Positions 29,454-48,705 are shown, counted from the first letter of the stretch. The stretch: DNA of 64,000 bases from an uncultured Magnetovibrio sp. (GCA_964451415.1 CAYVHU010000014.1:6521-70520); one strand, 5' to 3'. Program-made: numbers and translations. The notes: generated by a model from the sequence alone, not told the origin.

Positions 29454-29515
29454 CGCAGGCGAAAGCCTGCTTGCGATCGGAAATGAAATGATGTTGGAAT
29501 CTCCTGACGTTTTGG

Positions 29516-30200: not shown

Positions 30201-30220
30201 GAAATAACGAATAGTACGGG

Positions 30221-31012
30221 GTGAACACGTTGAAAGTTGCAGCCATTATTGAAGCCCGCATGCGGTCCTCACGCCTGCCGGGGAAGATCATGTTGCCTAT
30301 TGTGGGGAAGCCCGCCTTGGCGCATTTGTTCGAGCGGTTGAGGCGATGCAAGAATCTTGACGATGTCATCCTTGCAACCCCTGAAACGCCCTGCGACGTT
30401 GTGTTGGCGGACTTTGCGCAGCGTCAGGGCGTAAATTTTTTCCGTGGTAGCGAAAACGATGTCATGTCGCGGGTTTTATATGCCGCGCGTGAATTTGATG
30501 TCGATGTCATCGTCGAGATCACCAGCGATTGCCCTTTGGTTGACCCTGCCATGGTGGATGCGGCCATCGACCAGTTTTTTTCCGAGAAACTGGAGTATTT
30601 ATCCAACGTTATCAAGCGCACGTATCCGCGCGGTCTGGATGTCCAGATTTTCACTCGCACGGCTCTGGAGCGGGCGTTTGAGAACACCGGCGATCCGGTT
30701 GACCGGGAACATGTTGCGTTGTTTATTTACGAACACCCGGAAATTTTCAAACTGGGTCATTTCGGATGCGAAGGTACGCGGTTGGAGTGGCCAGAGCAGA
30801 GAATCACCCTGGACACGCCCGAGGATTATTTTGTTATCCGGTCCGTTTTTGAGAACCTTTATGCTGAAAACCCGGAGTTCGGTTATGTGGATATCCATGG
30901 GTTTTTGCAAAAAAACCCTGATATCGCCGCGATAAACATGGAAATTGTCCAAAAGCGAGCACGCGGTTACGATTTCACGCTCAAGGCCCGTCAGGCCTTG
31001 GGGTTGGAGTAG
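30221..31012 (+). CDS. SpsF-type cytidylyltransferase, copy 2
   Basis: 263 aa, same length as copy 1. By eye about 17 substitutions (for example A3T, E29G, D70G, T109P) and no indels. Confidence 0.8.
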   Translation: MNTLKVAAIIEARMRSSRLPGKIMLPIVGKPALAHLFERLRRCKNLDDVILATPETPCDVVLADFAQRQGVNFFRGSENDVMSRVLYAAREFDVDVIVEITSDCPLVDPAMVDAAIDQFFSEKLEYLSNVIKRTYPRGLDVQIFTRTALERAFENTGDPVDREHVALFIYEHPEIFKLGHFGCEGTRLEWPEQRITLDTPEDYFVIRSVFENLYAENPEFGYVDIHGFLQKNPDIAAINMEIVQKRARGYDFTLKARQALGLE

Positions 31013-31031
31013 GTTGAGCGGGTATCATCGC

Positions 31032-31058
31032 CTGTAAGCGGATTGCCGGGGCTTACAG
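31032..31058 (+). other. stem-loop CTGTAAGC-N11-GCTTACAG (copy 2)
   Basis: Identical to 26640..26666. Confidence 0.4.
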
Positions 31059-31142
31059 TTATGGCTGTCAGGCAAACGGGTTTGCCCCGGCACGCATGCG
31101 CAGGCTTACCCTTTATATTGTGCGTGTGATCCCGACCTCCTG

Positions 31143-31457
31143 GTGCACCGGCATTTTTCGGATGCCTTCGGTGTCGGCAATACGGACCTTGATGCTGCTC
31201 AAATGTTAAAAGATGTGTGCCTTGATACGGTTAGTATATGCACGCCGACCGCTACCCATGAAGTCATTCTCAAGCAAGGCCTGGATGCGGGCGTACGTGC
31301 GATTTGGTGTGAAAAGCCCTTGGGTCGGGACGTGTTGCCTTTGCAGCGACGGGTTGCCCAGGCCGTTGATATCGACACTTCGGAGGATTACGCCCGGGTG
31401 ACAACCATGGTCGAGGTGAACGTCAGGGCCGATATGCGCACCAGGGAAGGACAATAG
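31143..31457 (+). pseudogene. fragment of a Gfo/Idh/MocA-family oxidoreductase
   Basis: 'LDTVSICTPTATHEVILKQGLDAGVRAIWCEKPL' is the end of the N-terminal Rossmann domain of this family. The GxGxxG start and the whole C-terminal domain are missing (104 aa in total). Confidence 0.55.
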
Positions 31458-31458
31458 C

Positions 31459-34886: not shown

Positions 34887-34906
34887 TGTATTGAGACGTG
34901 AAATAG

Positions 34907-35983
34907 ATGCCTTTAGTTAAATCACAAGATATGGAAAACAGTATTATTCATGACCGCTCCATCGGTGCAGGTTGTTCGCCGTACATTATTGCGGAACTGT
35001 CGGGCAATCATAATGGTAAATTGGATCGTGCCCTTGCAATCATGGAGGCCGCTAAAGCGGCCGGTGCTGACGCCCTCAAGTTGCAGACCTATACCGCTGA
35101 CACGTTAACAATTGACTGCGATGGTCCGGGGTTTGTTTTGAAGGGCGGCTTGTGGCATGGCCGAACGTTGTATGATTTGTACAGTGAAGCTTCAACGCCT
35201 TGGGCATGGCATGAAGTTTTATTCGCCAAGGGACGGGAATTGGGGCTTAGCGTATTGAGTTCTCCGTTCGATGAAACGGCGGTCGATTTTCTTGAAGATT
35301 TAGGCTGCCCAGCCTACAAGATCGCTTCGTTTGAAGCCGCCGATTTTCCGCTGATTGAAAAAGTGGCGTCAACGGGTAAGCCGATGATTGTTTCTACGGG
35401 AATGATCTCAGAAGATGAAATAGATGAACTTGTGGCTTGTATCAAACGAGCAGGAGGAGGCCCGTTAACCCTCTTGCATTGTGTCAGTGCATATCCGGCA
35501 TTGCCGGAATCTTGTAATTTGCGGACACTACCCCGCTTGGCCGAAAAGTATGGCTGTGTTGTCGGTTTGTCTGATCATACCATGGGGACAGCTGTATCGA
35601 TTGCGGCCGTAGCAGTGGGCGCATCTGTGATCGAAAAACATGTGACCTTGTGCCGTTCCGATGGCGGGCCAGATGCGGCATTTTCCCTTGAGCCCAACGA
35701 ACTGGGCGACTTGGTGCGGGATTGTCGTATAACTTGGGCGGCCCTGGGGGACGTGCGGTTTGGGCAACAAAAAGAGGCGGAAGAAAACCTCGTTTTTCGA
35801 CGCTCACTGTATGCTGTGCAAGATATTTTCGCTGGGGAACGGTTGAGCTATGAAAACGTTAGATCTATTCGTCCGGGATATGGCTTGCCTCCCCAAATGA
35901 TTTCTAAAGTCGTTGGCAAAACAGCGACGGTCAATATAAAACGCGGAACGCCAATGTCTTGGGATTTATGCGATGAAACGTGA
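34907..35983 (+). CDS. pseI: pseudaminic acid synthase
   Basis: 'PYIIAELSGNHNGKLDRALAIMEAAKAAGADALKLQTYTADTLT', 'LLHCVSAYPA', 'GLSDHTMGTAVSIAAVAVGASVIEKHVTL' and a C-terminal SAF domain. Confidence 0.85.
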   Translation: MPLVKSQDMENSIIHDRSIGAGCSPYIIAELSGNHNGKLDRALAIMEAAKAAGADALKLQTYTADTLTIDCDGPGFVLKGGLWHGRTLYDLYSEASTPWAWHEVLFAKGRELGLSVLSSPFDETAVDFLEDLGCPAYKIASFEAADFPLIEKVASTGKPMIVSTGMISEDEIDELVACIKRAGGGPLTLLHCVSAYPALPESCNLRTLPRLAEKYGCVVGLSDHTMGTAVSIAAVAVGASVIEKHVTLCRSDGGPDAAFSLEPNELGDLVRDCRITWAALGDVRFGQQKEAEENLVFRRSLYAVQDIFAGERLSYENVRSIRPGYGLPPQMISKVVGKTATVNIKRGTPMSWDLCDET

Positions 35984-36110: not shown

Positions 36111-36449
36111 TTGGGGTCTCGCTTGTTGGCGGTGCTGGTGCGCGCCATGCTGTCCCAACCCGATGTGTTGGTTCTGGATGAAGCGACGAGCCATTTGGAT
36201 ACCATTACCGCGTCGGCAATCCAGCGTGCAATTCAAGAAGTTTGTACCCATCACACGGTGGTGATCGTTGCGCATCGCTTGTCCACGATTCGCTACGCTG
36301 AGCGCCTTGTGGTGATGGAAGCGGGTAAAGTTGCTGAAATTGACAACCATGACGAATTGTTTGAAAAGGGTGACGTTTACCGGCGCCTGTTTGATAGCCA
36401 GAAGTTGGATCTGAACGTGAACGAGGGCGCACAACATGACATCGCTTAA
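36111..36449 (+). pseudogene. C-terminal remnant of an ABC-transporter ATPase domain
   Basis: 'PDVLVLDEATSHLD' (Walker B), 'VVIVAHRLSTIRYAERLVVMEAGKVAEIDNHDELF' and 'YRRLFDSQ'. No Walker A, signature motif or TM domain. In-frame stops lie just upstream (36075, 36084). Confidence 0.6.
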
Positions 36450-37431
36450 AGCCGTCATCACCACCGTGCCGTTCGGCGCTATTGATCCCAAGCCCATCGA
36501 ACTTCTGGAAGGTGCCGGACTGGCGTACGAGATCAATCCCCTTGGGCGTAAGCTGCGTCCCGAAGAAGTGGCAGGTGTGATCGGTGATGCTGACATCGTC
36601 ATTGCGGGAACCGAACCCATTACCGCCGATGTGATGGCTGCATGTGCGAATCTGAAAGCCATTTGCCGCGTTGGTATCGGGTTGGACAGCGTGGATTTGC
36701 TGGCGGCGCGTAAACGCAACATCGGGGTGTCGTTTACTCCCGACGGGCCGTCGCCCGCAGTGGCGGAACTGACCATAGGTTTGATCGTCGATTTGCTACG
36801 TGAAGTCACCAAGGCGGATCGCGATATCCGCGTGGGAACCTGGTTTCGTAAGGCCGGACGGCGTGTGTCTGAATGCACAGTGGGGGTGATCGGCTGCGGG
36901 CGCGCCGGCGGCAGGGTGATCCGCCACCTGGTGGGCGGCTTTCCCGGTGTGAAGGTGCTCGCCAACGACCTTCGCAAGGTACCGGAACTGGACGGACTGG
37001 TTACGTGGACGGACAAGAAAACGATTTACCGAGAATGCGACGTGATCACGCTTCATGTCCCTCTGACCCCGGAAACGCAAAACCTGATTTCCGCAAAGGA
37101 ATTGGCAGATTTCAAGGCGCGAGCGATACTGTTGAACACAGCGCGTGGCGGCGTGGTGAACGAGGTTGATCTGGCGTGCGCTTTGCGTGACGGTATTCTG
37201 GGGGCCGCGGCCATAGATGCTTTTGAAGAAGAGCCGTATAAGGGCGAATTGTGTGGTCTGGACAACGTGGTGTTGACCTGTCACTTGGGATCGATGAGTG
37301 AAGATTGCCGTGCGCGCATGGAAATCGAAGCCACGCAAGAAGCCATACGTTTTGTTCAGGGCAAGCCTTTCTCCACGCCTGTTCCTGAAGACGAATATGC
37401 TATGGCTGCACGCTTGATGGATAGGAACTAG
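36436..37431 (+). CDS. D-isomer-specific 2-hydroxyacid dehydrogenase (phosphoglycerate dehydrogenase-like)
   Basis: 'VGVIGCGRAGGRVIRHL' (NAD fold), 'ECDVITLHVPLTPETQNLI', 'LLNTARGGVVNE' and 'AAAIDAFEEEP'. Confidence 0.8.
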   Translation: MTSLKAVITTVPFGAIDPKPIELLEGAGLAYEINPLGRKLRPEEVAGVIGDADIVIAGTEPITADVMAACANLKAICRVGIGLDSVDLLAARKRNIGVSFTPDGPSPAVAELTIGLIVDLLREVTKADRDIRVGTWFRKAGRRVSECTVGVIGCGRAGGRVIRHLVGGFPGVKVLANDLRKVPELDGLVTWTDKKTIYRECDVITLHVPLTPETQNLISAKELADFKARAILLNTARGGVVNEVDLACALRDGILGAAAIDAFEEEPYKGELCGLDNVVLTCHLGSMSEDCRARMEIEATQEAIRFVQGKPFSTPVPEDEYAMAARLMDRN

Positions 37432-37438
37432 GGCGATT

Positions 37439-38344
37439 ATGAAAATACTGGTAACGGGTGGTTCCGGCTTTTTAGGCAGCCACGTGGCGGATGCGCTGAG
37501 TGAGGCGGGTCACGACGTGACAGTGTTCGACATCAAGCCGTCGGCGTATCTGCAAGACACGCAAAGAATGCTCGTCGGTGACGTCACCGATTTTGAACAG
37601 GTTAGCCGGGCCGTTCAGGGCTGCGACGTTATCTATCATCTGGCCGCCCTCGCCGACATCGACGAGGCCATCAACAAACCGGTAGATACCATGACGGTGA
37701 ACCTGATGGGCACGCTCAACATGCTGGAAGCGGTCCGTAAACACGGCATCAAGCGGTTTGTTTTCTCCAGTTCCATCTATGTGTATTCGAACCAGGGTTC
37801 ATTTTACCGGACCTCCAAGCAGGCTTGTGAGCATTTGATTCAGGATTATCATGAGCGCTATGGAATTGAATATACAATATTACGCTATGGTTCTCTTTAT
37901 GGTCCACGGGCGGATGGAAGCAACTCGGTCTTCAAGATGATCACGTCTGCCTTGGAAGTGGGCAAAATCGAATACAGTGGCAATGGTCGGGAAGTCCGTG
38001 AATACATCCATATCCGTGATGCTGCTTTGATGAGCGCGGACGTTCTGGACGATGAATTCAAGGGTGCCATTTTGCATTTGACGGGACGCGAACGCATGAC
38101 GACGCGCGCCATGCTGGAAATGCTTGCAGAGATGCTGAACGGTGATGTTGATGTTGTTTTCGGGGATGGAAACATCGCCGGCCACTATTTGCAAACCCCC
38201 TACAATTACACGCCGCGCATCGGTCGCAAGATGACGCGCAACACCTACATTGATTTAGGACTCGGGCTTTTGGACTGTATTCAATTTCTTGATAGGTCCA
38301 ACTCCCCAATGCATCCGTCCTGCAGACACGATACGGACGGCTGA
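37439..38344 (+). CDS. NAD-dependent epimerase/dehydratase (extended SDR)
   Basis: 'MKILVTGGSGFLGSHVADAL', 'FSSSIYVY' and 'YRTSK' (YxxxK). Confidence 0.8.
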   Translation: MKILVTGGSGFLGSHVADALSEAGHDVTVFDIKPSAYLQDTQRMLVGDVTDFEQVSRAVQGCDVIYHLAALADIDEAINKPVDTMTVNLMGTLNMLEAVRKHGIKRFVFSSSIYVYSNQGSFYRTSKQACEHLIQDYHERYGIEYTILRYGSLYGPRADGSNSVFKMITSALEVGKIEYSGNGREVREYIHIRDAALMSADVLDDEFKGAILHLTGRERMTTRAMLEMLAEMLNGDVDVVFGDGNIAGHYLQTPYNYTPRIGRKMTRNTYIDLGLGLLDCIQFLDRSNSPMHPSCRHDTDG

Positions 38345-38365
38345 AAAAACTAGAGGAAGACCATT

Positions 38366-39112
38366 ATGATCGCAGCGATTTTGATCGGCCGCGAAGGATC
38401 CACCGGGTTTCCCGGCAAGAACGTATACCCTGTTTTGGGCCGTCCTCTGGTTGCCTATCCGTTGATGGCCGCCCAGGCGGCACCCAGCATTGATCGCACC
38501 TATGTGTCCACCGACAGCGAAGCGATCAAGACGATTGCGCATGATTTCGGTGTGCACGTTATCGATCGTCCAGATTATCTTTGCACCAAGGAAGCCCTGG
38601 GTGAAGATGCCTATGTTCATGCCTATGGGCTGATCAAGGCGCAGTGCGAAGAAAAGGGCGAGGAACTGGAACTGCTGGTCTTGCTGATGGCCAACGCACC
38701 GACCATTTCGAGCGTGCAGTTGGAAGAGGGCATCGCCGTGCTGCGCAAGCAACCCAAAACCGACAGTGCCGTGACGGTGAGTTGTTACAACATGTGGAGT
38801 CCGTTGCGGGCACGCAAGGTGGATGCCTCTGGGCATTTGCAGCCGTTCGTTCCCTTTGAGACTTTTGGGAACCCCAAAACCTTGAATTGCGACCGTGACA
38901 GTCAAGGTGAGGTGTGGTTCGCCGATATGGGCGTATCCATCGTGCGGCCTGAAAACCTCGACACCATGGAAGATGGTTTGTTGCCGCAAAAGTGGATGGG
39001 GAAAAATATCTGGCCAATCAAGAACGTTGGCGGGCTGGATGTGGATTATAATTATCAAATGCCACAGGCCGAATTCTGGTTAAAGGAAAATGGCATTCAA
39101 AAGGCCGATTAG
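38366..39112 (+). CDS. cytidylyltransferase (CTP_transf_3 family), the fourth member in this window
   Basis: 'MIAAILIGREGSTGFPGKNVYPVLGRPLVAYPL' and 'LLMANAPTI'. 248 aa. Confidence 0.7.
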   Translation: MIAAILIGREGSTGFPGKNVYPVLGRPLVAYPLMAAQAAPSIDRTYVSTDSEAIKTIAHDFGVHVIDRPDYLCTKEALGEDAYVHAYGLIKAQCEEKGEELELLVLLMANAPTISSVQLEEGIAVLRKQPKTDSAVTVSCYNMWSPLRARKVDASGHLQPFVPFETFGNPKTLNCDRDSQGEVWFADMGVSIVRPENLDTMEDGLLPQKWMGKNIWPIKNVGGLDVDYNYQMPQAEFWLKENGIQKAD

Positions 39113-39114
39113 TC

Positions 39115-39780
39115 TTATCCGGTAACAATGAATACGCGTGTGTGGTTCTGGTGCAGGATGTAACGTACCGGGTAATCCCGTGGGGAACCTGACGTGCTGG
39201 CTTTTTCCAGGGTATCGCGTTTGTTTTTACCGGGTGCGACCAACACAATGATCCGACTGTCGAGCAGGGCTGCAGGGGTGAGGCTGATACGGGGATGGTC
39301 CGTTCTGTCTACGGCCAATACGCTTAAAGGCGGGGTAAGGCACGCAACGTGCGGGAAAATGGATGCAACGTGGCCGTCTTCCCCCATGCCCAGGAAGGTT
39401 ACAGAAAACGGACGAGTGATGGGGCGTAGGCGGGATTCTATCTCGTCCAGGGCTTGTGTCGGATGAGCCGCAGCCGTTTTCAATCCGGTGAAGGTGGCGA
39501 GTCTGGTGCCGCTGTTCGACAGGATTTTTTGAACCAGCCGTTCGTTACTGTCGGGATGCTCTGCGTCAACCCAACGTTCGTCCGACAGGATAATGTCGAC
39601 GTGTTCCCAGGTTACGTTTTGTTGCGCTAATAAAGGTAGAACTAATCCAGCGGTGCGTCCACCCGGAACGACCAAAGAGGCGCGAGACGTTATCTCTAAA
39701 CCTTGCCGTAGATGAGTGGCGATAATCTCTGCCGCTGTTTCGGCCCAGTTGTCTGGAGAGTGGATGGTGTCATGAACCAT
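39115..39780 (-). CDS. pgl: 6-phosphogluconolactonase
   Basis: 'LVVPGGRTAGLVL', 'ILSDERWV' and 'FLGMGEDGHVASIFP' are typical of the 6PGL/NagB-family lactonase. It is the only convincing minus-strand gene in the window. Confidence 0.8.
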   Translation of the reverse strand: MVHDTIHSPDNWAETAAEIIATHLRQGLEITSRASLVVPGGRTAGLVLPLLAQQNVTWEHVDIILSDERWVDAEHPDSNERLVQKILSNSGTRLATFTGLKTAAAHPTQALDEIESRLRPITRPFSVTFLGMGEDGHVASIFPHVACLTPPLSVLAVDRTDHPRISLTPAALLDSRIIVLVAPGKNKRDTLEKASTSGSPRDYPVRYILHQNHTRVFIVTG

Positions 39781-39860
39781 ATGTACAATTTCATGTTGTT
39801 TTCAGGGTGCCGAACCCTAAGCCGGGTCAGGACAATCAAGTAGCAGGAGTGATTCAGGGT

Positions 39861-40910
39861 ATGTCTGATCTGGTTAAACTGGATGGTTATACATGCGGCG
39901 TTTGTGGATACGATGAGTTCTTACCCGTGGACTTTACGTCCTATACCATGGCCTCGGGGTCGAGCAACACCGACGTAAACGACTTCGTTAATCATATTTG
40001 CGATAACTGCGGCGTGGTGACACCTTATCCGCAGCCCGATCTGGATAAATTAGCGAAGCATTACAATGATGCCTACCGAAAGGACCGGTACGCCCTAGAC
40101 TTGGATGGCGAGTTCTTTCGCCCCCCGGTACAAATTCCTTGGAGCGGGGTAAGCTTTCTGCGGTTCCAGTCATTTTTTGATATGGTTCAGCGTCACAAGG
40201 GGAACGTTCCGGAACTGGTTCCGACCGCATCTGATACCTTCATTGATTACGGTGCATATCAAGGTATGTTTTTGTACGGTGCGAAACAGGCCTGGGGCTG
40301 TAATGGTATTGCCTATGATTACAACGAAGATGGCATCGCCTTTGCGCGCAATGCTCTTGACATGGGAAATTCCGTGGTTGCCCGGAACATTTACAGTGAC
40401 ACGTTTGCCGTGAGGGCGAAGTACGTTTCGTTGGTCCACGCGTTTGAACATCTTCAATATCCTGGAAAGTTTCTGGATCATCTGAAGCGTGAAGTTATGA
40501 CCGACGGCGGGTGGCTTTACATTGAAGTGCCAAATGCTTTTGGCTTTCCGATGTCCGACCCGACCCATTATTATTCCTACACGCTCGATGCCTTGAAGCG
40601 CACCATGGAAACCAATGGCTTTAAAGTGCATGATATCTGGATTGGCAACTATCCAATTTTAAAAGAATATGAATGGTCCACGCCAATTCAGAACATTTAT
40701 TGTTTGGCGCGACCATCCAGCAGTACCGAGACCAACGACCATCCGCGCGTACGTGCACAGAGCGTCTATAATGAACTGCGCAAAAGTTATCGCGTTCTGT
40801 CCTCTCGTTACGTCTGGGACGAATTCAGAAAGTTGATGTGGGATTGCGTGCGCATGGTCAAACACATATGGAAACTGGTTACACTTGATTTTCTGGGAAT
40901 GAAACGGTAA
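39861..40910 (+). CDS. class I SAM-dependent methyltransferase with an N-terminal Cys4 zinc-ribbon
   Basis: 'CGVCGYDEF...CDNCGVV', then 'FIDYGAYQGMFLYGA', 'KYVSLVHAFEHLQYP' and 'GGWLYIEVPN'. GGAG precedes ATG 39861. Confidence 0.7.
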   Translation: MSDLVKLDGYTCGVCGYDEFLPVDFTSYTMASGSSNTDVNDFVNHICDNCGVVTPYPQPDLDKLAKHYNDAYRKDRYALDLDGEFFRPPVQIPWSGVSFLRFQSFFDMVQRHKGNVPELVPTASDTFIDYGAYQGMFLYGAKQAWGCNGIAYDYNEDGIAFARNALDMGNSVVARNIYSDTFAVRAKYVSLVHAFEHLQYPGKFLDHLKREVMTDGGWLYIEVPNAFGFPMSDPTHYYSYTLDALKRTMETNGFKVHDIWIGNYPILKEYEWSTPIQNIYCLARPSSSTETNDHPRVRAQSVYNELRKSYRVLSSRYVWDEFRKLMWDCVRMVKHIWKLVTLDFLGMKR

Positions 40911-41725
40911 TGCCGTTTTCCGTTTCCAATATTGGGTTACCGCCGCATGGGTGTGAACCCAGGTTTGATAAAGTTAAAGAGCTTGGTTTTGATGGCGTTG
41001 AAGTTGCGCCGAGCCGGGTGTGGTGTGATACGTGGAAAGGCTTGCGTGCCGCAGATGTCGAGCGATACCGTCAACAGATTGAGGCGGCGGGGCTCAAAGT
41101 GGTTGGCCTGCATTCTTTGTTTTTCGATCAACCCGATTTGACGATTTTTGGTGACGATCACACGCGCGCCAGGTCTGTGGAATTTTTAGCGCATCTCTCT
41201 ACGGTATGCCGGGACCTAGGTGGCAAAACATTGATTTTCGGTTCACCGAACGCTCGACGACGAGGCCCCATGACGAAGCCGCAGGCTCTGGATTTGGCGG
41301 CGCGAACTTTTGATGAACTGAGCGCAAAAACCCAAGGCCATGGCACCCTGTTTTGTATGGAGCCCTTGGGGCCCACGGAAACGGATTTTTGCAATACCAT
41401 TGCCGAGATCGAAGACCTGTATGCACGCATTGACACGGATATTGTGCGCTTTCAAATTGATGTGCGGGCGTTGAGTGCCAACGGTGAGGTCGTCTCGAGC
41501 GTGTTCGAAAAGGTTAAATCCCTGCTGGCGCATGTGCACGTGAACGCGGCCGATCTCGGGGCGTTGCGCACCGATGATGGCGTTGAACATAAGATGGCGG
41601 GGAATTTTTTGAAACAGATCAAGTATGCCAGCTTCTTGTCTCTCGAACAGCGTAGCGTGGATGAGAGTGATTACTGGACGCCCCTTGCCCAAAGCATGAA
41701 AATTATGAAAGAATTTTATGCATGA
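40910..41725 (+). CDS. sugar phosphate isomerase/epimerase (xylose-isomerase-like TIM barrel)
   Basis: 'ELGFDGVEVAP', 'GLKVVGLHSLF', 'LIFGSP' and 'FCMEPLGPTETDF' are typical AP_endonuc_2/TIM-barrel segments. Confidence 0.65.
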   Translation: MPFSVSNIGLPPHGCEPRFDKVKELGFDGVEVAPSRVWCDTWKGLRAADVERYRQQIEAAGLKVVGLHSLFFDQPDLTIFGDDHTRARSVEFLAHLSTVCRDLGGKTLIFGSPNARRRGPMTKPQALDLAARTFDELSAKTQGHGTLFCMEPLGPTETDFCNTIAEIEDLYARIDTDIVRFQIDVRALSANGEVVSSVFEKVKSLLAHVHVNAADLGALRTDDGVEHKMAGNFLKQIKYASFLSLEQRSVDESDYWTPLAQSMKIMKEFYA

Positions 41726-42486
41726 CACCTTTTGCTAAGCCCGATTGGACTCCCAGGGTGCCTGACAACGCAAAGATTTTGGTTGTCGGTGCTTCCGGTG
41801 GCATCGGCCAGGCTGTGGTTCGGATGTTGACCGACGGTTCGTCGTGTATGATCGGTGTCCATGGCCGCAATGGCAGTTGTTTGAACCCGGGCAACACCAT
41901 CGTGCCTTTGGTGGCGTCTTTGAAAACGATGGACGATTGTGAGGCGCTGGTTGCAAAATTTGTTGGCGCGGCTGGCGGTATTGATGGTTTGGTTGTGCTG
42001 TCAGGCAGTATTTCTTCGACTGCACATTGGTCCGAAGTGTCTGAAGACAGTTGGCTTGATGATATGAACGCCAACCTCAATGTGCCGTTCTATCTGGCTC
42101 GGGCAGCTTTTGAACGGATGAAAAAGAAAGGCGGAAAGATCGTCCTCAACGGGACGGAATCCGCGCTTCATGGGGGGAGTTCGACAGCCTTTGCCTATGG
42201 CGTCGCCAAACACGGTGTTGAATGTATGGTGAAAGGATTGGCGCGTGATGGGGCGCCGCATGATATTTTAGTCAATGGCGTGCGTATAGGCTTCGTTGAT
42301 AGCGGTTTTCACAAACGCTGGCAGAACAAAACAGATGCTGATTTGGAGAATAGAGTTGATATGATTCCGCTCAAACGTGCCGGACATGTTGATGAGGTCG
42401 CCGCACTCGTCATATATCTAATGTCTGGATATGCTGATTTCATCACGGGTCAGATGATTGGTTTGACGGGTGGGGATTGGCTTTAA
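41722..42486 (+). CDS. short-chain dehydrogenase/reductase (classical SDR)
   Basis: 'ILVVGASGGIGQAVVRML' (TGxxxGxG-like), 'YGVAKHG' (YxxxK) and 'RAGHVDEVAALVIYLMSGYADFITGQMIGLTGG'. Confidence 0.8.
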   Translation: MTPFAKPDWTPRVPDNAKILVVGASGGIGQAVVRMLTDGSSCMIGVHGRNGSCLNPGNTIVPLVASLKTMDDCEALVAKFVGAAGGIDGLVVLSGSISSTAHWSEVSEDSWLDDMNANLNVPFYLARAAFERMKKKGGKIVLNGTESALHGGSSTAFAYGVAKHGVECMVKGLARDGAPHDILVNGVRIGFVDSGFHKRWQNKTDADLENRVDMIPLKRAGHVDEVAALVIYLMSGYADFITGQMIGLTGGDWL

Positions 42487-42555
42487 ACTGTTGTTTGCGG
42501 ATAAGTTACTTGATTTTGCAAGTGTATTTGCACCTTGATAAGGAAATAGGACTTC

Positions 42556-44133
42556 ATGGGAATTCGCGTGCTTTTCGTCTATCCCAATACCTTTGGGATG
42601 AACATGCTGCCGCCCGCGATTGCATTGTTTTCGGCGCTGTTGAAGCGCGAAGGCCATCAGATCGCAGTGTTTGATGCGACCTATTATCAGACCGATTACG
42701 GTATCGACAGCGATGGTACCAAAATGGAAATGCTGAACGTTGTGCCCTACAATATGGATGGGCGCGGCATTAATTTGCGCACTACCGAGTGGCGGCAGGA
42801 CTTACATGAACAGGTGGAACGCTTCCAGCCGGACTTAATTGCCGTGTCCTCGACCGAGGACATGTGGGAATTGGGTATGCACATTCTGGAGGAGGTTGAA
42901 GACTATAAAACGCGCAACGCTGTGCCGGTAATTGCCGGTGGCGTGTTTCCCACATTTGCCCCCGATATCACGCTCAACTGGCCATTGATCGATATGGTGT
43001 GCGTGGGAGAAGGGGAAAATGCACTGGTCGATTTGTGTGCCAAAATCGAGCGTGGCGAAGATTATTTCGACGTGACCAACCTGTGGCTTAAGGACAAGGA
43101 CGGACGGATTGTCAAGAATGCAGTGACCAAGCCTGTCGATATTAACGCCCTGCCCATGATTGACATTGGTATCTTTGAAGATGCACGCTTGTATCGGCCC
43201 ATGGCCGGGCGTGTATACCGCATGTTGCCGATCGAAACCATTCGCGGCTGTCCGTATTCCTGCCGCTACTGCAATTCGCCGACACAAATGGCTCTCTATA
43301 AGGAAATGACGGGCGCAAAATTCCTGCGCAAGAAGAAAATGGATCTGGTGCACAAGGAATTGCGCTATTTCAAAGATGAACTGAATCTGGAATACGCATA
43401 TTTCTGGGCTGATACATTTCTGGCAATGAACAACCGCGAGCTGGATGAGTTCTGCGAAATGTATTCCGACATCAAGTTGCCGTTTTGGATGCAGACGCGT
43501 CCCGAAACCATCAATCACGACAATATCAAAAAGCTCAGTGAAGTGGGTTTGCACAGGATTTCGTTTGGTCTGGAGCACGGCAACGAGGAATTTCGCGCGC
43601 GCATGTTAGGTCGGCGCTGGAAAAACGAGGATATCATCGAATCCTTGAAAATACCGCACCAGTACGGAGTGCAGTTCTCGGTCAACAACATCACCGGGTT
43701 TCCTGAGGAAACCCGTGAAATCGCCATGGATACGGTGGAGCTTAATCGCCATATCGGTGCGGACAATGCCAATATTTATTCGTTCGTTCCGTTTCACGGA
43801 ACGCCCTTGCGCAAGGTGTGTGAGGACAAGGGATTGATTGCTCACGAAACCATCACGAAGTGCCTCACCGATGCCCCGGTGTTTGAGATGGAGCAATATT
43901 CCATCGACGAAATAATGGGCCTGCGCAAATGCTTTGTACTCTATGTGGCGTTCCCGAAAAACCGCTGGAAGGACATTGCGCGCGCCGAAGCGAACACCCC
44001 TGAAGGCAACCGTATTTTTGCGGAATTGAAGGAAGAGTACATGGATAAGTATTTCCATGCTCCGGCGGACAATCCCAATGCCGAAATCGCCAATGTGGCG
44101 GATTTGGAATACGGTATGCAGGCCAGCACTTAA
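42556..44133 (+). CDS. B12-binding-domain radical SAM enzyme
   Basis: N-terminal 'IRVLFVYPNTFGMNMLPPAIALFSALLKREGH...IAVSSTEDMW...VIAGGVFPTF' and radical SAM core 'IETIRGCPYSCRYCNSP'. 525 aa. Confidence 0.8.
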   Translation: MGIRVLFVYPNTFGMNMLPPAIALFSALLKREGHQIAVFDATYYQTDYGIDSDGTKMEMLNVVPYNMDGRGINLRTTEWRQDLHEQVERFQPDLIAVSSTEDMWELGMHILEEVEDYKTRNAVPVIAGGVFPTFAPDITLNWPLIDMVCVGEGENALVDLCAKIERGEDYFDVTNLWLKDKDGRIVKNAVTKPVDINALPMIDIGIFEDARLYRPMAGRVYRMLPIETIRGCPYSCRYCNSPTQMALYKEMTGAKFLRKKKMDLVHKELRYFKDELNLEYAYFWADTFLAMNNRELDEFCEMYSDIKLPFWMQTRPETINHDNIKKLSEVGLHRISFGLEHGNEEFRARMLGRRWKNEDIIESLKIPHQYGVQFSVNNITGFPEETREIAMDTVELNRHIGADNANIYSFVPFHGTPLRKVCEDKGLIAHETITKCLTDAPVFEMEQYSIDEIMGLRKCFVLYVAFPKNRWKDIARAEANTPEGNRIFAELKEEYMDKYFHAPADNPNAEIANVADLEYGMQAST

Positions 44134-44151
44134 ACAGTCCAGTACTTAAAG

Positions 44152-45297
44152 GTGAAGCCCATCATATATACCAAGGACAACAGCTTCGTCGGTTTTTCCG
44201 GCGTGGATCGAGACATCACGGCCATTCTGACCCGGGTGCGGGCGTTGGCGTCCGGGCTGGACGATATGAATCTGGACGCGCACCGTCTGGAAATTTTGCG
44301 CCGCGTCTGCGGCAACCTGCTTGCCGACGAAGGCAAAGGCGTCGACGGATTTTGGCTGCGCCCACACATCGTCGAAGAGCTACGCCGGATTAGCGATGAT
44401 GAGTTGCCGCGCTATTTGTTCTATCGTTTCCGTTACGACGTGTTTCCGGCAAAGAAGGAACTGGACGCCTTTCCGCCGTGCGTACAGATCGAGCCGACCT
44501 CGGTGTGTAATTACCGTTGCGTGTTTTGCTACCAGACCGACCCCAAGCTGCAAGACAGGAAAGCCGGACACAAGGGCCGCATGAGCCTGGATGTGTTCAA
44601 GGCCGTGGTTGATCAGATCGAAGGCGAGGTCGAAGCCGTAAGTCTGGCCAGTCGCGGTGAACCGTTGCTGTGCAAGGATATCGTCCCCATGCTGGAATAC
44701 ATTTCCGGCAAATTTTTAGGGTTAAAGATCAATACCAACGCTTGGTATTTAACGGAAGAAAAGGCCCATGCCTTGCTGTCTGCGGACTGCAACACCATCG
44801 TTTTTTCCGCCGATGCGGCGGACGACGAACTGTACGCCAAGCTGCGCGTCAACGGACGACTGGATCAGGTGTTGGCAAATATACGCATGTTCGCCGACAT
44901 CCGGGCCAAACACTATTCCGCTTCGCGCACCATTACGCGAGTTTCGGGGGTGAAGTTTTCCGATCAGCAGGATTTCGCAGCCATCGAGAACTTCTGGAAG
45001 GACTACGTCGATCAGGTGGCGTTCGTCGAATATAACCCGTGGGTCAGCGTTTACGATGCGCAGCCCAGCGGTGTGGAGGCGGCCTGTTCGGATTTGTGGC
45101 GGCGCACCTTTGTGTGGTGGGACGGGCGCGTCAATCCGTGTGACGTGGACTACCTGTCCCATCTGGCGGTGGGCGACATCACCGAGACGCCCCTGTCGGA
45201 AATCTGGCGCGGCGAAGGGTACGAGGCCCTGCGCCAACAGCATTTGGACGGCGATCGTGCAAACCTGATGCCGTGTCGCAATTGTTCTTTGGTGTAG
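44152..45297 (+). CDS. radical SAM protein with a SPASM-like C-terminal domain (GTG start)
   Basis: 'IEPTSVCNYRCVFCYQ'. C-terminal 'ACSDLWRRTFVWWDGRVNPCDVD...MPCRNCS'. Confidence 0.8.
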   Translation: MKPIIYTKDNSFVGFSGVDRDITAILTRVRALASGLDDMNLDAHRLEILRRVCGNLLADEGKGVDGFWLRPHIVEELRRISDDELPRYLFYRFRYDVFPAKKELDAFPPCVQIEPTSVCNYRCVFCYQTDPKLQDRKAGHKGRMSLDVFKAVVDQIEGEVEAVSLASRGEPLLCKDIVPMLEYISGKFLGLKINTNAWYLTEEKAHALLSADCNTIVFSADAADDELYAKLRVNGRLDQVLANIRMFADIRAKHYSASRTITRVSGVKFSDQQDFAAIENFWKDYVDQVAFVEYNPWVSVYDAQPSGVEAACSDLWRRTFVWWDGRVNPCDVDYLSHLAVGDITETPLSEIWRGEGYEALRQQHLDGDRANLMPCRNCSLV

Positions 45298-45303
45298 GGT
45301 CCC

Positions 45304-45975
45304 ATGGCATTCCCCCTCGACCTTGAGCGTTACCGCAGTGTGGTTTTCGATTGCGATGGTGTGTTGCTGGATTCCAACTTGGTCAAGACCGAAGCCTTCC
45401 GCCGTGCCGTGGGGCATTACGGCCATGATGTCACGGAAAAACTGGTTGAGCACCACGTCACCAACGGCGGCATTTCCAGGTTCAAGAAATTCGCTTATTT
45501 TTTTGAGGTGCTTTTGGGGCGTGCACCGCATGAAGGGGAAATGGAAGACGTTCTGGCGCGATTTTCCGCGGCGACGAAACAAGGTCTGGTGGATTGTGAC
45601 GAGGCCCCGAAATTGCGTGAGATTTTGTCTTCTATTCCCGAAGATCGGCCCCGTTTGGTGGTTTCCGGGGGCGCCCAGGACGAACTGCACGAGGTCTTTT
45701 CCAAACGGGGTTTGACACCGTATTTCACGGCCATTTTTGGCAGTCCCGACACCAAGGAGGAAATTTTGTCCCGGGAAATCGCCAACGGAAACCTGCTTGA
45801 ACCCGCCTTGTATATTGGCGATTCCCGTTACGATTACCTTGCGGCCAAGGCTTGCGGTCTGGACTTTGTTTTTGTTTCCGGGTGGACGGAATTTTCCGGT
45901 TGGGAAGACTTTTGCGCCGACAAAAACATTCGCGTTTTTGAGAGCGTGTCCGCTATTTTTAACGCAAGCACCTGA
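45304..45975 (+). CDS. HAD-superfamily hydrolase (phosphatase/phosphomutase-like)
   Basis: 'VVFDCDGVLLDSN' (DxDG motif I), 'VVSGGAQ' and 'LYIGDSRYDYLAAKACG' (motif IV). Confidence 0.75.
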   Translation: MAFPLDLERYRSVVFDCDGVLLDSNLVKTEAFRRAVGHYGHDVTEKLVEHHVTNGGISRFKKFAYFFEVLLGRAPHEGEMEDVLARFSAATKQGLVDCDEAPKLREILSSIPEDRPRLVVSGGAQDELHEVFSKRGLTPYFTAIFGSPDTKEEILSREIANGNLLEPALYIGDSRYDYLAAKACGLDFVFVSGWTEFSGWEDFCADKNIRVFESVSAIFNAST

Positions 45976-45979
45976 TCTT

Positions 45980-47800
45980 ATGAACGCCTCGAAAAATCAA
46001 GCAGTGATCGCAACCCTGACGCGGCACGCCAAAAAGGTCTGCGCCATGGTGTCCCGGGGTGGCGCGTTTACGGTGTGGGTTTTCGGGGGTGACGCCAAGC
46101 TGCGTTTGAACTTGTCGAGCATGTTGCCATTGAACGCAACGTTGGGCGTTTTGGGGACCCGCCTTGATGAAGCCGCCGATACGGTGGAACGTGAATTGCT
46201 GGATTTGGATCAACAGGTCTTGTCGGAAGAAAAGGACCGTCTGGCCTGGTGCGCCAGTTTGATCGGTGATCGCAGCCCGTATGCCGGGGATCTTCAGCTT
46301 AACACGGCGCGCTATATAGTTATGGATGGCATCGTTCGTGCGGGCGGGCGACATTTATTTTTTGTTGAAAACGATATTATCGCTCAGGCATTGGTACGTG
46401 CCGCCCAGACCAACGCTCTTCACGTGAGTTGGCATGGTGGGCAACGCCGAGCGTCTTCGTTCATGAAGACGGTGCGCGCCAAGATGTCAGCGTTAAGGAC
46501 CCATTGGCGACAATCGAGCGTGTTGAAAAAAATGCGGCGCACCCGTCCGGCACCATGGGGAAAGCTGGAAGAATGTGACGTTTTGCTGATCGATTGGGCG
46601 GGTGTCAATGGCTTTGACCCCGTGCACCACACCGGGCGCACGCACAATCTTGTGCGCATGGCGGAGATCTTGCGCAAGGCGGGACTCAAGGTTGGCTTCA
46701 TCGCCAATGCATTGAGTTGGACCCAGCCGTATGAGGCCATCGCCGCCAACGTCACCGCTGCTTTTGACCCAGTGGTTTTGATTGATGAATGTCGGAGCAT
46801 GGGCTCGGTTGTGCGCGGAGCATGGGCGACGTGGGGCATGCTGCGGCGGCTTAAATTTAACTTTCGAGCAGCGGGCCATGATCTGAGTGCACTGTTTGAA
46901 CTGGAATGCAACAAAGATAAAATCTATCCGCAATCCACATTGGCCTACACCCTTGCTGACGTGGCCAGGACCTTGGCAACGCACAAGGTTATGCCCAAAG
47001 CAATTGTCTATCCGTTTGAGAATCAGGGCTGGGAACGTGCCTTGATTGTCGGCATGCGCAGGCATTTGCCGAATACGCGTCTGATTGCGTATCAGCACTC
47101 TCCGTTTGCAGCGCGCTATATCGGCATTTTCCCACCGCGTAATGACATCAATGTTGATCGATTGCCGGACCGGTTTGTGGTGATGGGGCCGCACTATGTA
47201 AAATTGTTTGCGGACCATGGTTGGCCTTGGAAGCGTCTGGTGCTCGGCGGCAGCGTGCGTTTCGAAGCGGCTCTGGCCGATCCCCCGCAACCCGTTCGCG
47301 GTGGAATCAAGACGGTTCTGGCGGTGCCTTCTATTGATTTTGCCGAAGCTTTGGATCTGGTGGTCAAGGTGGGAACGGCGATCAAATTTGTTCCCGGCGC
47401 ACATTTGGTGGTGAATTTTCATCCCGTGGTAGATCAGGCTTTTCGGGATGATTTGGTTGAGGCCGTGGGGAAGGACATCATGGAAAAAGCCAAGGTTTCG
47501 TATGCCCGCGCAGCGGATTTGATCGCTGGGGCCGACGTTTTGGTTTACAACAGTTCCGGTGCGGTGTTTGACGCGTGTTTTGCCGGAGTGCCCGCGGTGC
47601 ACGTTGCCGTGGATGGTTGCTTGAGTTATGACAAGGTGCCGGGCACGATATCGCGGCGCGTTTATACAGTGGATGACCTGACAGACGTGTTGCGTGAACT
47701 TTTATCCAAACGTCAGAATGTGGCTCCTGATTTGTCTGTTGGCGGTGTGGTTGGGCCGGTTGACGAAGGTGCCATCGTGAGCGCCGTGAGGGGGGCATGA
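45980..47800 (+). CDS. large hypothetical protein (about 606 aa), possibly a GT-B-like transferase
   Basis: ATG 45980 lies 4 nt after the HAD stop. The track start (45737) overlaps the HAD gene. C-terminal 'HLVVNFHPVVDQ...ADLIAGADVLVYNSSGAVFDACFAGVPAVHV' resembles a GT-B C-terminal half. Confidence 0.5.
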   Translation: MNASKNQAVIATLTRHAKKVCAMVSRGGAFTVWVFGGDAKLRLNLSSMLPLNATLGVLGTRLDEAADTVERELLDLDQQVLSEEKDRLAWCASLIGDRSPYAGDLQLNTARYIVMDGIVRAGGRHLFFVENDIIAQALVRAAQTNALHVSWHGGQRRASSFMKTVRAKMSALRTHWRQSSVLKKMRRTRPAPWGKLEECDVLLIDWAGVNGFDPVHHTGRTHNLVRMAEILRKAGLKVGFIANALSWTQPYEAIAANVTAAFDPVVLIDECRSMGSVVRGAWATWGMLRRLKFNFRAAGHDLSALFELECNKDKIYPQSTLAYTLADVARTLATHKVMPKAIVYPFENQGWERALIVGMRRHLPNTRLIAYQHSPFAARYIGIFPPRNDINVDRLPDRFVVMGPHYVKLFADHGWPWKRLVLGGSVRFEAALADPPQPVRGGIKTVLAVPSIDFAEALDLVVKVGTAIKFVPGAHLVVNFHPVVDQAFRDDLVEAVGKDIMEKAKVSYARAADLIAGADVLVYNSSGAVFDACFAGVPAVHVAVDGCLSYDKVPGTISRRVYTVDDLTDVLRELLSKRQNVAPDLSVGGVVGPVDEGAIVSAVRGA

Positions 47801-48705
47801 ACCCCGTCCCGACCCTCAGTGTCATCATGACCGTTTTCAATGGCGATGCGTTTTTGCAAGAAACGCTGGATGGCGTTTGGGCGCAGACGTTTACGGATTT
47901 TGAGCTGGTGGTGGTCAACAACGGTTCCACCGATGGCACCCAGGCGATTTTGGACGCCGTGGACGATGCACGGTTGCGGGTTATCCAGGCGCCCGCACGC
48001 GGCGGCACCTTCGGCGATGGTATCCGCCTTGCCTACGCGCATGCGTGCGGCACGTACATCGCGGTGCAAGACGCCGACGATGTGTCCTTGCCGACGCGCT
48101 TTGAGAAACAGGTTGCCGCGCTTGAGGCGAACGGCAGCCTTGGCCTTGTTTTTGGCGCGTATCAGGACATGGACGCCGACGGCAATGTGGATGTCGTTCA
48201 CCATCCGCCGGGCGAGCAGCACGATTTGGCCAACGCATTACAGTCTCACAATCCACTGGCCCATTCCACGTACATGTACCGCAAGGCGGCGTCCGATCAG
48301 GTGGGGGGCTATGCGGGCGAATACGCCTACGGTCCCGATTTTGCGCTGGTGGTGCGGCTGATGAAAAAGGGCTGGGGCGTGAAGGGGCTTGACGATGTGG
48401 TGTTGAAACTGCGCTGTCATCCGGGGCAGGTTTCCATCGCGTCTGATTTTAGTGTTATGCGGGCGCACGATGCGTTGTATCTGTTTCGCGAAGCCTCCGG
48501 TTTGGCGGGGATATCGCCTCAGGCCAGACGTGCGGGACGTCACCGGATTGCGAAGTGCGCGGTTCAATACGCCCTGGCTTTGCTTAAGGAAGGACGCGTG
48601 CGTGAAGGCGTCAAACAGATGCTGATGGGATTGTTGCGCTATCCCCTTTATGGCTCTGCCTACTTGGTGTATCGATTAGCCTTCCAAAAGGGGAGAAAAA
48701 CATGA
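47797..48705 (+). CDS. family 2 glycosyltransferase
   Basis: 'LSVIMTVFNGDAFLQETLDGVWAQTFTDFELVVVNNGSTDGT' and 'QDADDVSLPTR' (DxD). Confidence 0.85.
   Translation: MNPVPTLSVIMTVFNGDAFLQETLDGVWAQTFTDFELVVVNNGSTDGTQAILDAVDDARLRVIQAPARGGTFGDGIRLAYAHACGTYIAVQDADDVSLPTRFEKQVAALEANGSLGLVFGAYQDMDADGNVDVVHHPPGEQHDLANALQSHNPLAHSTYMYRKAASDQVGGYAGEYAYGPDFALVVRLMKKGWGVKGLDDVVLKLRCHPGQVSIASDFSVMRAHDALYLFREASGLAGISPQARRAGRHRIAKCAVQYALALLKEGRVREGVKQMLMGLLRYPLYGSAYLVYRLAFQKGRKT

Follow-up and report, generated by a model that had tools for sequence, protein, structure and literature searches.

What does a second block of tailoring genes do in a bacterial nonulosonic-acid (NulO) island, and does it repeat the first one? 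The question is raised by a 64,000-nucleotide stretch of DNA from an uncultured Magnetovibrio sp. (GCA_964451415.1 CAYVHU010000014.1:6521-70520; hereafter the window, with positions counted from its first letter), in which a block at 36436-47800, here called module 2, starts 450 bases past pseI. The original prediction described this block as a second tailoring module repeating a set found at 15466-19281 (set 1, or module 1) and made of a B12-radical S-adenosylmethionine (SAM) enzyme, a radical SAM/SPASM enzyme and a methyltransferase. The coordinates and domains of the eleven genes listed for it were borne out by Pfam and NCBIfam scans. A second tailoring block is thus present in the NulO island, and a literature search retrieved neither a paper on such a gene combination nor a matching characterised pathway. 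We consider, with moderate confidence, that module 2 represents one of the copies of a surface-glycan cassette that has spread horizontally. Our best reading of its chemistry, to which we give an even chance, is that the cassette carries out the radical remodelling of an ulosonic acid activated with cytidine monophosphate (CMP). The cassette is widespread and uncharacterised, and the mechanism is offered as a lead, not as a result. The genes of the module, followed by the adjacent glycosyltransferase (GT) gene, are listed below and are referred to by their first coordinate.

36436-37431, plus strand: SerA-like D-2-hydroxyacid dehydrogenase (Pfam 2-Hacid_dh_C, 7.9e-43)
37439-38344, plus strand: GalE-like extended short-chain dehydrogenase/reductase (SDR) of the nucleotide-sugar epimerase/dehydratase type, core (Pfam Epimerase, 3.3e-49)
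38366-39112, plus strand: cytidylyltransferase, core (CTP_transf_3, 1.5e-13)
39115-39780, minus strand: 6-phosphogluconolactonase (pgl), accessory (TIGR01198, 140.4 bits, cutoff 124.45)
39807-40910, plus strand: zinc-ribbon and class I SAM methyltransferase (Methyltransf_23, 1.2e-13)
40910-41725, plus strand: TIM-barrel protein resembling keto-sugar epimerases/isomerases (AP_endonuc_2, 1.2e-25)
41722-42486, plus strand: classical FabG-like SDR reductase (adh_short_C2, 3.2e-32)
42556-44133, plus strand: predicted cobalamin-type radical SAM enzyme (class B architecture), core (B12-binding, 47.8 bits; Radical_SAM, 9e-21)
44152-45297, plus strand: predicted BtrN-like twitch radical SAM enzyme, core (Radical_SAM, 1.7e-17; SPASM, 7.6e-14)
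45304-45975, plus strand: HAD-IA phosphatase, accessory (HAD_2, 1.3e-12)
45980-47800, plus strand: 606-residue protein with a predicted GT-B fold (ATG start at 45980; no Pfam match)
47797-48705, plus strand: GT2 glycosyltransferase (Glycos_transf_2, 3e-24)

To determine how widely these genes travel together, neighbourhoods were collected from metagenomic contigs and by scanning a single genome of each species. Open reading frames (ORFs) were clustered over 24 non-redundant loci (L001, L002 and so on), and a flank of 10 kb was used for module-1 genes and for genes of pseudaminic acid (Pse) or legionaminic acid (Leg) type. The following counts were obtained.

B12 enzyme: 24 of 24 loci
GalE-like SDR: 14 of 24 loci
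38366-type cytidylyltransferase: 14 of 24 loci (13 clustered, plus the window gene, which was dropped by the ORF filter)
Twitch radical SAM enzyme: 13 of 24 loci
SerA-like dehydrogenase: 9 of 24 loci
HisC-like aminotransferase: 8 of 24 loci
GT2 glycosyltransferase: 8 of 24 loci
Glucose-1-phosphate cytidylyltransferase: 8 of 24 loci

The core of module 2 therefore recurs across lineages, which answers positively the question, posed with the original prediction, of whether the block is a conserved cassette. This core consists of the 38366 cytidylyltransferase, the 37439 SDR, the cobalamin-type radical SAM enzyme 42556 and the twitch enzyme 44152. It is usually accompanied by 36436, 45980 and 47797, the 36436 dehydrogenase being a frequent but not universal member. 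The hosts are marine Rhodospirillales, Thalassospiraceae, Terasakiella, Methylocystaceae, Nitrospinaceae and many SAR11 single-cell genomes, with identities of 47-87%. On a Thioglobus contig the B12 enzyme is found with the SDR only, and a Taylorbacteria genome encodes a B12 homologue of 43% identity. At E<=1e-20 the 42556 protein has 2480 homologues, the best 120 of which are 64-87% identical to it. Pse/Leg-type genes lie within 10 kb at no fewer than eight loci (the window, L002, L009, L011, L021, L024, L026 and L030).

The first question to be asked of 42556 is whether it uses cobalamin. Its B12-binding domain (PF02310) scores 47.8 bits, over a cutoff of 32.1, and the CxxxCxxC motif for the radical SAM [4Fe-4S] cluster (C232/C236/C239) is invariant in 25/25 sequences. 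An AlphaFold2 model (mean predicted local distance difference test, pLDDT, of 82) matches TsrM, MgmA (9CCB; PMC11796369), AprD4, OxsB, CysS and TokK over its full length, with query-normalised TM-scores of 0.57-0.63 against TsrM, MgmA, OxsB, CysS and TokK. Judged from sequence and model, 42556 has the structural features that define class B radical SAM enzymes. Its score stays below all curated NCBIfam cutoffs, those of methyltransferase families included, the best being TIGR04013 with 105 bits against 251. Its nearest families are TIGR04013, BchE and HpnJ. The closest solved structure by sequence is AprD4, on which the fold superposes equally well. This enzyme, a diol dehydratase, binds no cobalamin (PMC12931638).

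The surroundings of the gene in SAR11 bear on the same point. In each of the five SAR11 loci scanned (L032, L014, L015, L020, L021), an AdoCbl-II riboswitch (RF01689, 75-101 bits) lies no more than a few kb from the B12-radical SAM orthologue. In L032 (11666-14282) the riboswitch is directly upstream of a gene for a BtuB-like TonB receptor, itself followed by a DUF6580 gene. The BtuB-like receptor family is present in five SAR11 loci and the DUF6580 family in seven. This neighbourhood gives independent, indirect support for the use of cobalamin by the 42556 family, as read from the gene arrangement. The regulation of SAR11 btuB by B12 has been stated to be unknown (PMC9296465). Genes for 5S rRNA or tRNA are also close by in L032 and L015. 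As a separate observation, a second, unrelated B12-radical SAM gene (584 aa, PhpK/BchE-like) lies at 2329-4083 of L006, 4 kb upstream of the Thalassospiraceae cassette; several cobalamin radical enzymes per glycan locus may be common in such loci.

The second radical SAM enzyme, 44152, carries a Pfam SPASM match, as does its counterpart 15466 in set 1. In both proteins this match corresponds to a half-domain: four C-terminal cysteines are found in 44152 (C312, C330, C375, C378) and five, including an adjacent pair, in 15466, instead of the seven to eight of a two-cluster SPASM domain. C245/C263/C308/C311 of 15466 and C312/C330/C375/C378 of 44152 have the identical 18/45/3 spacing. BtrN is the top Protein Data Bank (PDB) match for 44152 (5.6e-11) and for 15466 (2e-13). 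C330, C375 and C378 of 44152 align residue for residue to the PC and CxNC cysteines of BtrN. The first auxiliary cysteine (C312 or C245) falls just beyond the aligned stretch and is matched to BtrN by coordinate offset only. The seven cluster cysteines of 44152 are conserved without exception in 13/13 orthologues. Because of the four or five C-terminal cysteines and of the alignment to BtrN, both proteins are predicted to be of the twitch type, with a single auxiliary cluster, rather than peptide maturases with the two clusters of SPASM. With a CxxxCxxC motif and four auxiliary cysteines alignable to BtrN, 44152 and 15466 both fit the BtrN-like twitch type, the kind that acts on carbohydrates. 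Peptide maturation of the RiPP (ribosomally synthesised and post-translationally modified peptide) kind was considered for these genes and rejected, since both enzymes are BtrN-like, the operon is a co-directional glycan operon and a precursor-like context is absent. Like 42556, 44152 matches no curated functional family. From its similarity to BtrN and from the neighbouring aminotransferase or reductase genes, we infer that 44152 may catalyse the two-electron oxidation of a secondary alcohol.

The analogy with BtrN, the 2-deoxy-scyllo-inosamine dehydrogenase of butirosin synthesis, extends to gene context. BtrN works with the aminotransferase BtrS, and most cassette copies have an aminotransferase beside the radical enzyme. 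Both 44152 and 15466 align with BtrN over the radical SAM core as well as over the twitch domain with its single cluster, at low identity (E of about 1e-11 to 1e-13). However, BtrN lacks the N-terminal extension of about 100 residues of 44152, BtrS is DegT-like whereas the cassette aminotransferase is HisC-like, and the substrate of BtrN is an aminocyclitol whereas that of the cassette is presumably a nucleotide-linked acidic sugar.

The most informative clue to the mechanism is a variable slot between pgl and the B12 gene. In a syntenic relative, L040 (ERZ23498358 scaffold_32), the order is dehydrogenase, SDR, MT21, cytidylyltransferase, pgl on the opposite strand, aminotransferase, B12 enzyme, twitch enzyme, 610-aa protein and GT2. 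The window has the same frame with the slot swapped and an extra HAD gene: where L040 carries a class I/II aminotransferase (Aminotran_1_2, 6138-7226), the window carries the methyltransferase, TIM-barrel and SDR genes (39807-42486). Aminotransferases orthologous to that of L040 occur in L006, L002 and L032 and are HisC/CobD-like. The TIM-barrel gene is also found in L004 and L015, in L004 together with the SDR. The 41722 SDR, which has FabG-type NCBIfam matches, is 54% identical to the orthologue beside the TIM-barrel gene in L004. The 40910 TIM-barrel protein has weak NCBIfam matches to 5-keto-L-gluconate epimerase, fructoselysine 3-epimerase and psicose 3-epimerase, and its closest PDB entries are TM0416 and the 3-keto-D-glucoside 4-epimerase 6wn6. 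Its closest characterised relatives are therefore epimerases that act at a carbon adjoining a ketone. The 39807 methyltransferase has an N-terminal CxxC...CxxC motif (C30/C33/C65/C68) and probably starts at 39861, the gene caller giving 349 aa in L001; no orthologue was found in the other loci tested. Since an aminotransferase and an epimerase with a reductase are alternative consumers of a ketone, the swap suggests, at the level of gene content, a keto intermediate in the pathway of the cassette. By analogy, the BtrN-like 44152 is the obvious candidate for making this ketone.

What the substrate might be is indicated by the cytidylyltransferase. The match of 38366 to PF02348 (CTP_transf_3; 51.5 bits over a cutoff of 22.6) covers the N-terminal 67 residues only. 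Scores against the named equivalogs remain below the cutoffs, with 66 bits for TIGR03584 PseF (cutoff 205.7) and 32-43 bits for the KdsB models (cutoffs 193-255). The closest PDB entries are 6ifd (3.1e-14), which is Aeromonas caviae PseF (PMC13656337), and NeuA. R9, K18 and D225xD227 are invariant in 12/12 sequences, the orthologues being 52-81% identical, and the protein is not TagD-, IspD- or LicC-like. By family, 38366 is a divergent cytidylyltransferase of the CMP-ulosonate-synthetase type with intact catalytic motifs. The 37439 SDR is closest in the PDB to the epimerase/dehydratase-family entries 6wjb and 6dnt and to UDP-glucose 4-epimerase 4zrm (1e-31 to 1e-28).

At the other end of the module, the model of the 606-residue 45980 protein (pLDDT 91.6) shows a GT-B fold with an additional N-terminal Rossmann-like domain. 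It matches NeuC/2-epimerases, OleD, the capsule polymerase 8qoy and WaaA at about 1e-8, and there is a weak match to TIGR04326 (2.7e-9). Its 18 homologues are 37-62% identical and lie 3′ of the twitch gene in L006, L033 and L040. In these same three loci the GT2 gene, orthologues of which occur in 8/24 loci, is directly 3′ of the gene for the protein of about 610 residues. On the basis of the model, 45980 is a putative dedicated transferase.

These elements can be assembled into a five-step scheme. An ulosonic acid, most probably the NulO made by the adjacent Pse/Leg genes, would first be CMP-activated by 38366. The twitch enzyme 44152 would then convert one of the secondary alcohols of this nucleotide-linked sugar into a ketone, in the manner of BtrN. 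In most genomes, the HisC-like aminotransferase would resolve this ketone into an extra amino group, following the BtrN/BtrS logic; in the window, the TIM-barrel protein and the FabG/ElaC-like reductase would instead yield an epimeric alcohol, which the zinc-ribbon methyltransferase may O-methylate. The cobalamin radical SAM enzyme 42556 would most likely methylate an unactivated carbon. Finally, the GT-B protein 45980 would transfer the finished sugar.

The architecture of module 2 has a counterpart in the ela and aci modules of Acinetobacter, which lie behind the core NulO genes and replace the core cytidylyltransferase gene lgaG (PMC13656337, PMC9676051). In the ela module, ElaB is a dedicated cytidylyltransferase, while ElaA and ElaC have been proposed to act on C8 of CMP-Leg, the hydroxyl being oxidised to a ketone and then stereospecifically reduced again by a FabG-like SDR (PMC13656337, PMC9676051). 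Like these modules of Acinetobacter baumannii K loci, module 2 has its own CTP_transf_3 enzyme and oxidoreductases behind NulO genes, 38366 lying with 36436, 37439 and 41722 directly downstream of pseI. A FabG-like SDR is found in both, and 41722 shares its enzyme class with ElaC, for which a role as CMP-8-keto-Leg reductase is proposed (PMC13656337). The likeness is one of architecture and enzyme class. The oxidant ElaA is an NAD(P)-dependent Gfo/Idh/MocA protein, whereas no GFO_IDH_MocA domain was found in 36436-47800, the sole one in the window being at 57814. In place of ElaA, module 2 has two radical SAM enzymes, the GalE-like SDR and the SerA-like dehydrogenase.

As to 42556, it shares the B12-binding Rossmann domain and the CxxxCxxC barrel with class B radical SAM enzymes, among them GenK/GenD1 and Fom3, whose substrates are sugars or cytidylylated compounds, and the structural relatives TsrM, MgmA, TokK and OxsB. 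The proposed chemistry has its parallels in BtrN/BtrS and in B12-radical SAM sugar methylases. Its cytidylyltransferase neighbour compares with the Fom1/Fom3 pair of fosfomycin synthesis, in which a B12-radical SAM enzyme methylates a cytidylylated small molecule. The context of 42556 differs in being a surface polysaccharide, not an antibiotic. Phosphonate tailoring, by analogy with Fom1/Fom3 or PntC, was rejected, because Pfam scans of the window revealed neither a phosphoenolpyruvate mutase nor a phosphonopyruvate decarboxylase.

The accessory genes of module 2 open other possibilities. The top NCBIfam match of the 36436 dehydrogenase is to the phosphoglycerate dehydrogenase family PGDH (1.3e-56, under cutoff), and its closest PDB entry is the phosphoglycerate dehydrogenase 1wwk (1.2e-45). 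The 45304 HAD protein has weak NCBIfam matches to phosphoglycolate and 6-phosphogluconate phosphatases. Its relatives occur in L002, L011 and L030 only, at 26-29% identity, and it has no counterpart in L040. A Glucosamine_iso gene occupies the pgl slot in L040, in the same orientation, and such a gene also lies close to the cassette of Nitrospina L002. Many loci with the core dispense with the dehydrogenase, HAD and pgl genes, and the SAR11 locus L032 has none of the three.

From the dehydrogenase, phosphatase, cytidylyltransferase and methyltransferases, the original prediction proposed an activated, methylated hydroxy-acid or polyol-phosphate product. In this scheme, a SerA/SerC/SerB-like branch (dehydrogenase, aminotransferase, HAD) followed by CTP activation would yield a methylated hydroxy-acid or amino-acid/polyol-phosphate substituent, similar to glyceroyl or serinol phosphate, to decorate the Pse/Leg sugar or polymer. 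The closeness of the dehydrogenase to 3-phosphoglycerate dehydrogenases, the HisC/CobD-like aminotransferase of other loci, from a family acting on phosphorylated small molecules, and the presence of HAD phosphatase and pgl all agree with it, as does the Fom1/Fom3 precedent. Such a product is possible; nevertheless it is not the best fit, and we regard both the product and the route to it as unlikely. Besides the dispensability of the three accessory genes, the cytidylyltransferase is of the CMP-ulosonate family, the GalE-like nucleotide-sugar SDR is a core member, and module 2 contains no enzyme for acyl activation, ligation (ligase, ATP-grasp, CoA-ligase) or acyl transfer.

The pgl gene raises a further alternative, namely a self-contained route from central metabolism to a 2-ulosonic acid that is not a NulO. 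Pgl would supply 6-phosphogluconate, oxidation at C2 by the dehydrogenase would give 2-keto-6-phosphogluconate, and HAD would release 2-ketogluconate, to be CMP-activated, deoxygenated or methylated by radical chemistry, and transferred. Pgl scores over its equivalog cutoff and a pgl-like gene recurs in the L040 slot and near the L002 cassette; the HAD protein weakly matches the 6-phosphogluconate phosphatase YqaB (3.3e-7); 2-ketogluconate(-6-P) reductases belong to the family of the 36436 dehydrogenase; and AprD4, which of the solved structures is nearest in sequence to the B12 protein, is a sugar diol dehydratase. In L004, an HpcH-type pyruvate aldolase gene stands beside a CTP_transf_3 gene (not an orthologue of 38366), a dehydrogenase and an SDR gene, and points to alternative sources of ulosonate. 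On the other hand, pgl and HAD are rare among the cassette loci, the dehydrogenase is nearer to PGDH than to GhrB/2-ketogluconate reductases, and we know of no hexulosonate-type residue from these taxa. We therefore judge both this substrate and the sequence of reactions leading to it improbable, still more so than the hydroxy-acid substituent. Both schemes are ranked below the remodelling of a CMP-activated ulosonic acid because the genes that they rely on are absent from many core-keeping loci and because an acid-attaching enzyme is absent.

Several points nevertheless weigh against the radical remodelling of a CMP-ulosonic acid. Methylation by 42556 is not assured, since its closest solved structure is a cobalamin-free diol dehydratase, and its sequence and fold data fit a methyltransferase and an AprD4-like dehydratase alike. 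No NeuB-type synthase was found within 10 kb in several loci (L006, L010), and the acceptor may therefore be something other than a nonulosonic acid. The proposed steps are placed in an arbitrary order, and there is weak similarity both to BtrN (E of about 1e-11) and to the 3-keto-glucoside epimerase (E 2e-4). Small phosphorylated acids are the normal substrates of HisC/CobD-like aminotransferases and of SerA-like dehydrogenases, and these enzymes fit a small-molecule branch better than sugar chemistry. Together with HAD and pgl, they also fit a small phospho-acid route or a route from 6-phosphogluconate to a hexulosonic acid.

To our knowledge, all NulO tailoring steps described so far rely on NAD(P), pyridoxal phosphate, acyl or SAM chemistry. 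We tentatively propose that the cassette represents a hitherto undescribed way of building surface sugars, in which a cobalamin-dependent radical SAM enzyme and a second radical SAM enzyme would remodel a CMP-activated NulO, or another CMP-activated ulosonic acid, into a chemically undescribed sugar, C-methylated and either aminated or epimerised, with a swappable slot giving strain-level diversity and, in SAR11 and other abundant marine bacteria, a surface glycan tied to B12 supply through the riboswitch and BtuB. If this were true, C-H functionalisation would join the repertoire of NulO tailoring through a conserved radical SAM pair, and new sugar structures would be predicted in the abundant marine SAR11, Nitrospina and Rhodospirillales. 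Nonulosonic acids shape phage, predator and immune recognition at bacterial surfaces, and the aminotransferase versus epimerase/reductase slot would offer a simple, testable model for the diversification of hypervariable glycan islands. The linkage between riboswitch and BtuB would tie B12 availability to the composition of the SAR11 cell surface in a concrete way. Terasakiella sp. A23, apparently a cultured isolate, carries the cassette, which makes these ideas directly testable.

We then come to the claim that module 2 repeats set 1, the genes of which are:

15466-16443, plus strand: predicted BtrN-like twitch radical SAM enzyme (Radical_SAM and SPASM)
16450-17124, plus strand: class I methyltransferase (Methyltransf_11, 2.4e-19)
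17121-19281, plus strand: KedN5-like B12-radical SAM gene, frameshifted (NF033712 KedN5, 1.2e-58)

The same three Pfam domain types are indeed present at 15466-19281 and the gene order differs between the sets, as predicted. The pairwise comparison called for with that prediction also gave the clear divergence that it announced. The B12-radical SAM proteins are 23% identical (E 2e-6) and have different best families. The SPASM-annotated proteins 44152 and 15466 align end to end with 24% identity (E 2e-22). Between the methyltransferases 39807 and 16450 no relation is detectable (E 0.006). The repetition therefore holds for domain types and does not go beyond them, since the B12 proteins are of different subfamilies and the methyltransferases are unrelated. 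The one real resemblance of the two sets beyond the generic fold is the shared BtrN-like twitch type.

Could the two sets still be paralogous copies of one tailoring unit, performing the same chemistry on Leg-type and Pse-type sugars? The common domain types, the identical cysteine spacing of the two BtrN-like proteins and the presence of both sets in one related island speak for such an origin. However, similarity clearly above the superfamily level was not found for all three components taken together. In addition, no module-1 gene was found within 10 kb of module 2 at 13 or more other loci. Only one other island, closely related and syntenic, has both modules, and their order there is that of the window; as both are on the scaffold of that one relative, their co-occurrence has been seen once, in a single lineage. 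The survey does not support the idea of a repeated set. The radical SAM pair of set 1 is kept adjacent only in the close relative L034, whereas set-1 B12 homologues with identities of 59% and 53% have no radical SAM partner. That this pair is widely conserved was rejected on these grounds, and a recent duplication of set 1 was rejected on pairwise identity and family assignment. The frameshift of the set-1 B12 gene in the window also counts against a paralogous unit. Overall, by sequence comparison, module 2 is not a paralogue or duplicate of set 1, and paralogy, already largely refuted by the pairwise comparisons and the locus survey, appears to us very improbable.

The frameshift is a +1 shift in a G9 run at 18493-18501, which splits the set-1 B12 gene into two halves, ORFs 17121-18515 and 18382-19281. 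The ORF 18382-19281, previously left as unknown, is the C-terminal third of a protein of about 714 residues. Homologues of the set-1 B12 protein are all of about 670-715 aa, and one of them, P0141 (714 aa), can be aligned to both ORFs, at 84% for 17121-18515 and 74% for 18382-19281. Where the window has G9, L034 has TGGGGCGGGCGC, an interrupted G run in an intact 714-aa gene. The G9 allele is also present in two SRA runs and in one NCBI assembly, so the frameshift is either real or a reproducible homopolymer artefact; its cause could be phase variation, a pseudogene or such an artefact. Poly-G tracts as enriched phase-variation switches were rejected, as the three G runs of at least eight in the 64 kb correspond to the chance level (about 3 expected from base composition by our own estimate). 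The likeness of set 1 to the KedN5 family of methylcobalamin radical SAM C-methyltransferases consists of the NF033712 match of 17121-19281 only, which covers model positions 15-390 and scores 199 bits against a cutoff of 700. Set 1 differs from that family in this low score, in its frameshifted gene and in its setting, a NulO island and not an enediyne cluster.

Gene and domain scans show that the 64-kb window is essentially a single co-directional surface-polysaccharide island, with a G+C content of 46-55% against 57-64% for the flanks. The main groups of genes outside module 2 are:

3476-4662: island head, MarR-EPS regulator (3476) and RfaH-type antiterminator (4165)
4691 onwards: legionaminic-acid-type genes, NeuB (4691), NeuD-like acetyltransferase (5821), CBS-nucleotidyltransferase (6435), Fe-ADH (7541), two DegT aminotransferases, cytidylyltransferase (9896), SDR (10629) and hydrolysing 2-epimerase (12814)
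15466-19281: set 1, the comparison set, then a KamA-like aminomutase gene at 19487
20696-35983: pseudaminic-acid genes, PseB (20696), PseC (21691), PseG-GNAT fusion (33378) and PseI (34907-35983)

Interleaved with the Pse genes are an ABC exporter, a GT4, a WbuX-HisH-HisF amidotransferase trio and two cytidylyltransferase copies. Module 2 is followed on its 3′ side by the GT2 gene, CDP-glucose pathway genes and then methyltransferase, AsnB-like and GT1 genes. An Rfam scan of the window gave zero matches, and a promoter/terminator scan of module 2 gave no signal above the shuffled expectation.

Some further features of the island were recorded. Upstream of the 3476 regulator are a gene for a XerC/D-like tyrosine recombinase (1447-2403) and accA; past the island head, about 55 kb are mostly one-stranded, with a G+C content below that of the flanks. 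The KamA-like radical SAM gene after set 1 (19487-20641; lysine/arginine/glutamate 2,3-aminomutase family) is absent from the related island L034 and suggests a beta-amino-acid substituent. Two large proteins, encoded at 14202-15476 (424 aa) and 31459-33378 (639 aa), have no Pfam or NCBIfam match; we list them as candidates for the transferases or polymerases that serve the Leg and Pse parts. That 14202, 31459 and 45980 form one homologous family of NulO transferases was ruled out, pairwise similarity being absent. At 52913-57784, a full AsnB-like gene (52913) is followed by an ORF with a GATase domain only (55926-56603) and by an ORF combining the C-terminal part of an asparagine synthase with a GT1 (56576-57784). 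ORFs 55926-57784 look like a rearranged or frameshifted second asnB. Finally, a direct repeat of about 1 kb (25585-26620 and 29969-31012, 92-94% identical) flanks the WbuX-HisH-HisF trio. It comprises the 3′ end of a GT4 gene and the gene for a 263-aa cytidylyltransferase, the two protein copies of which are 94% identical, and it resembles a scar left by an insertion or duplication through recombination.

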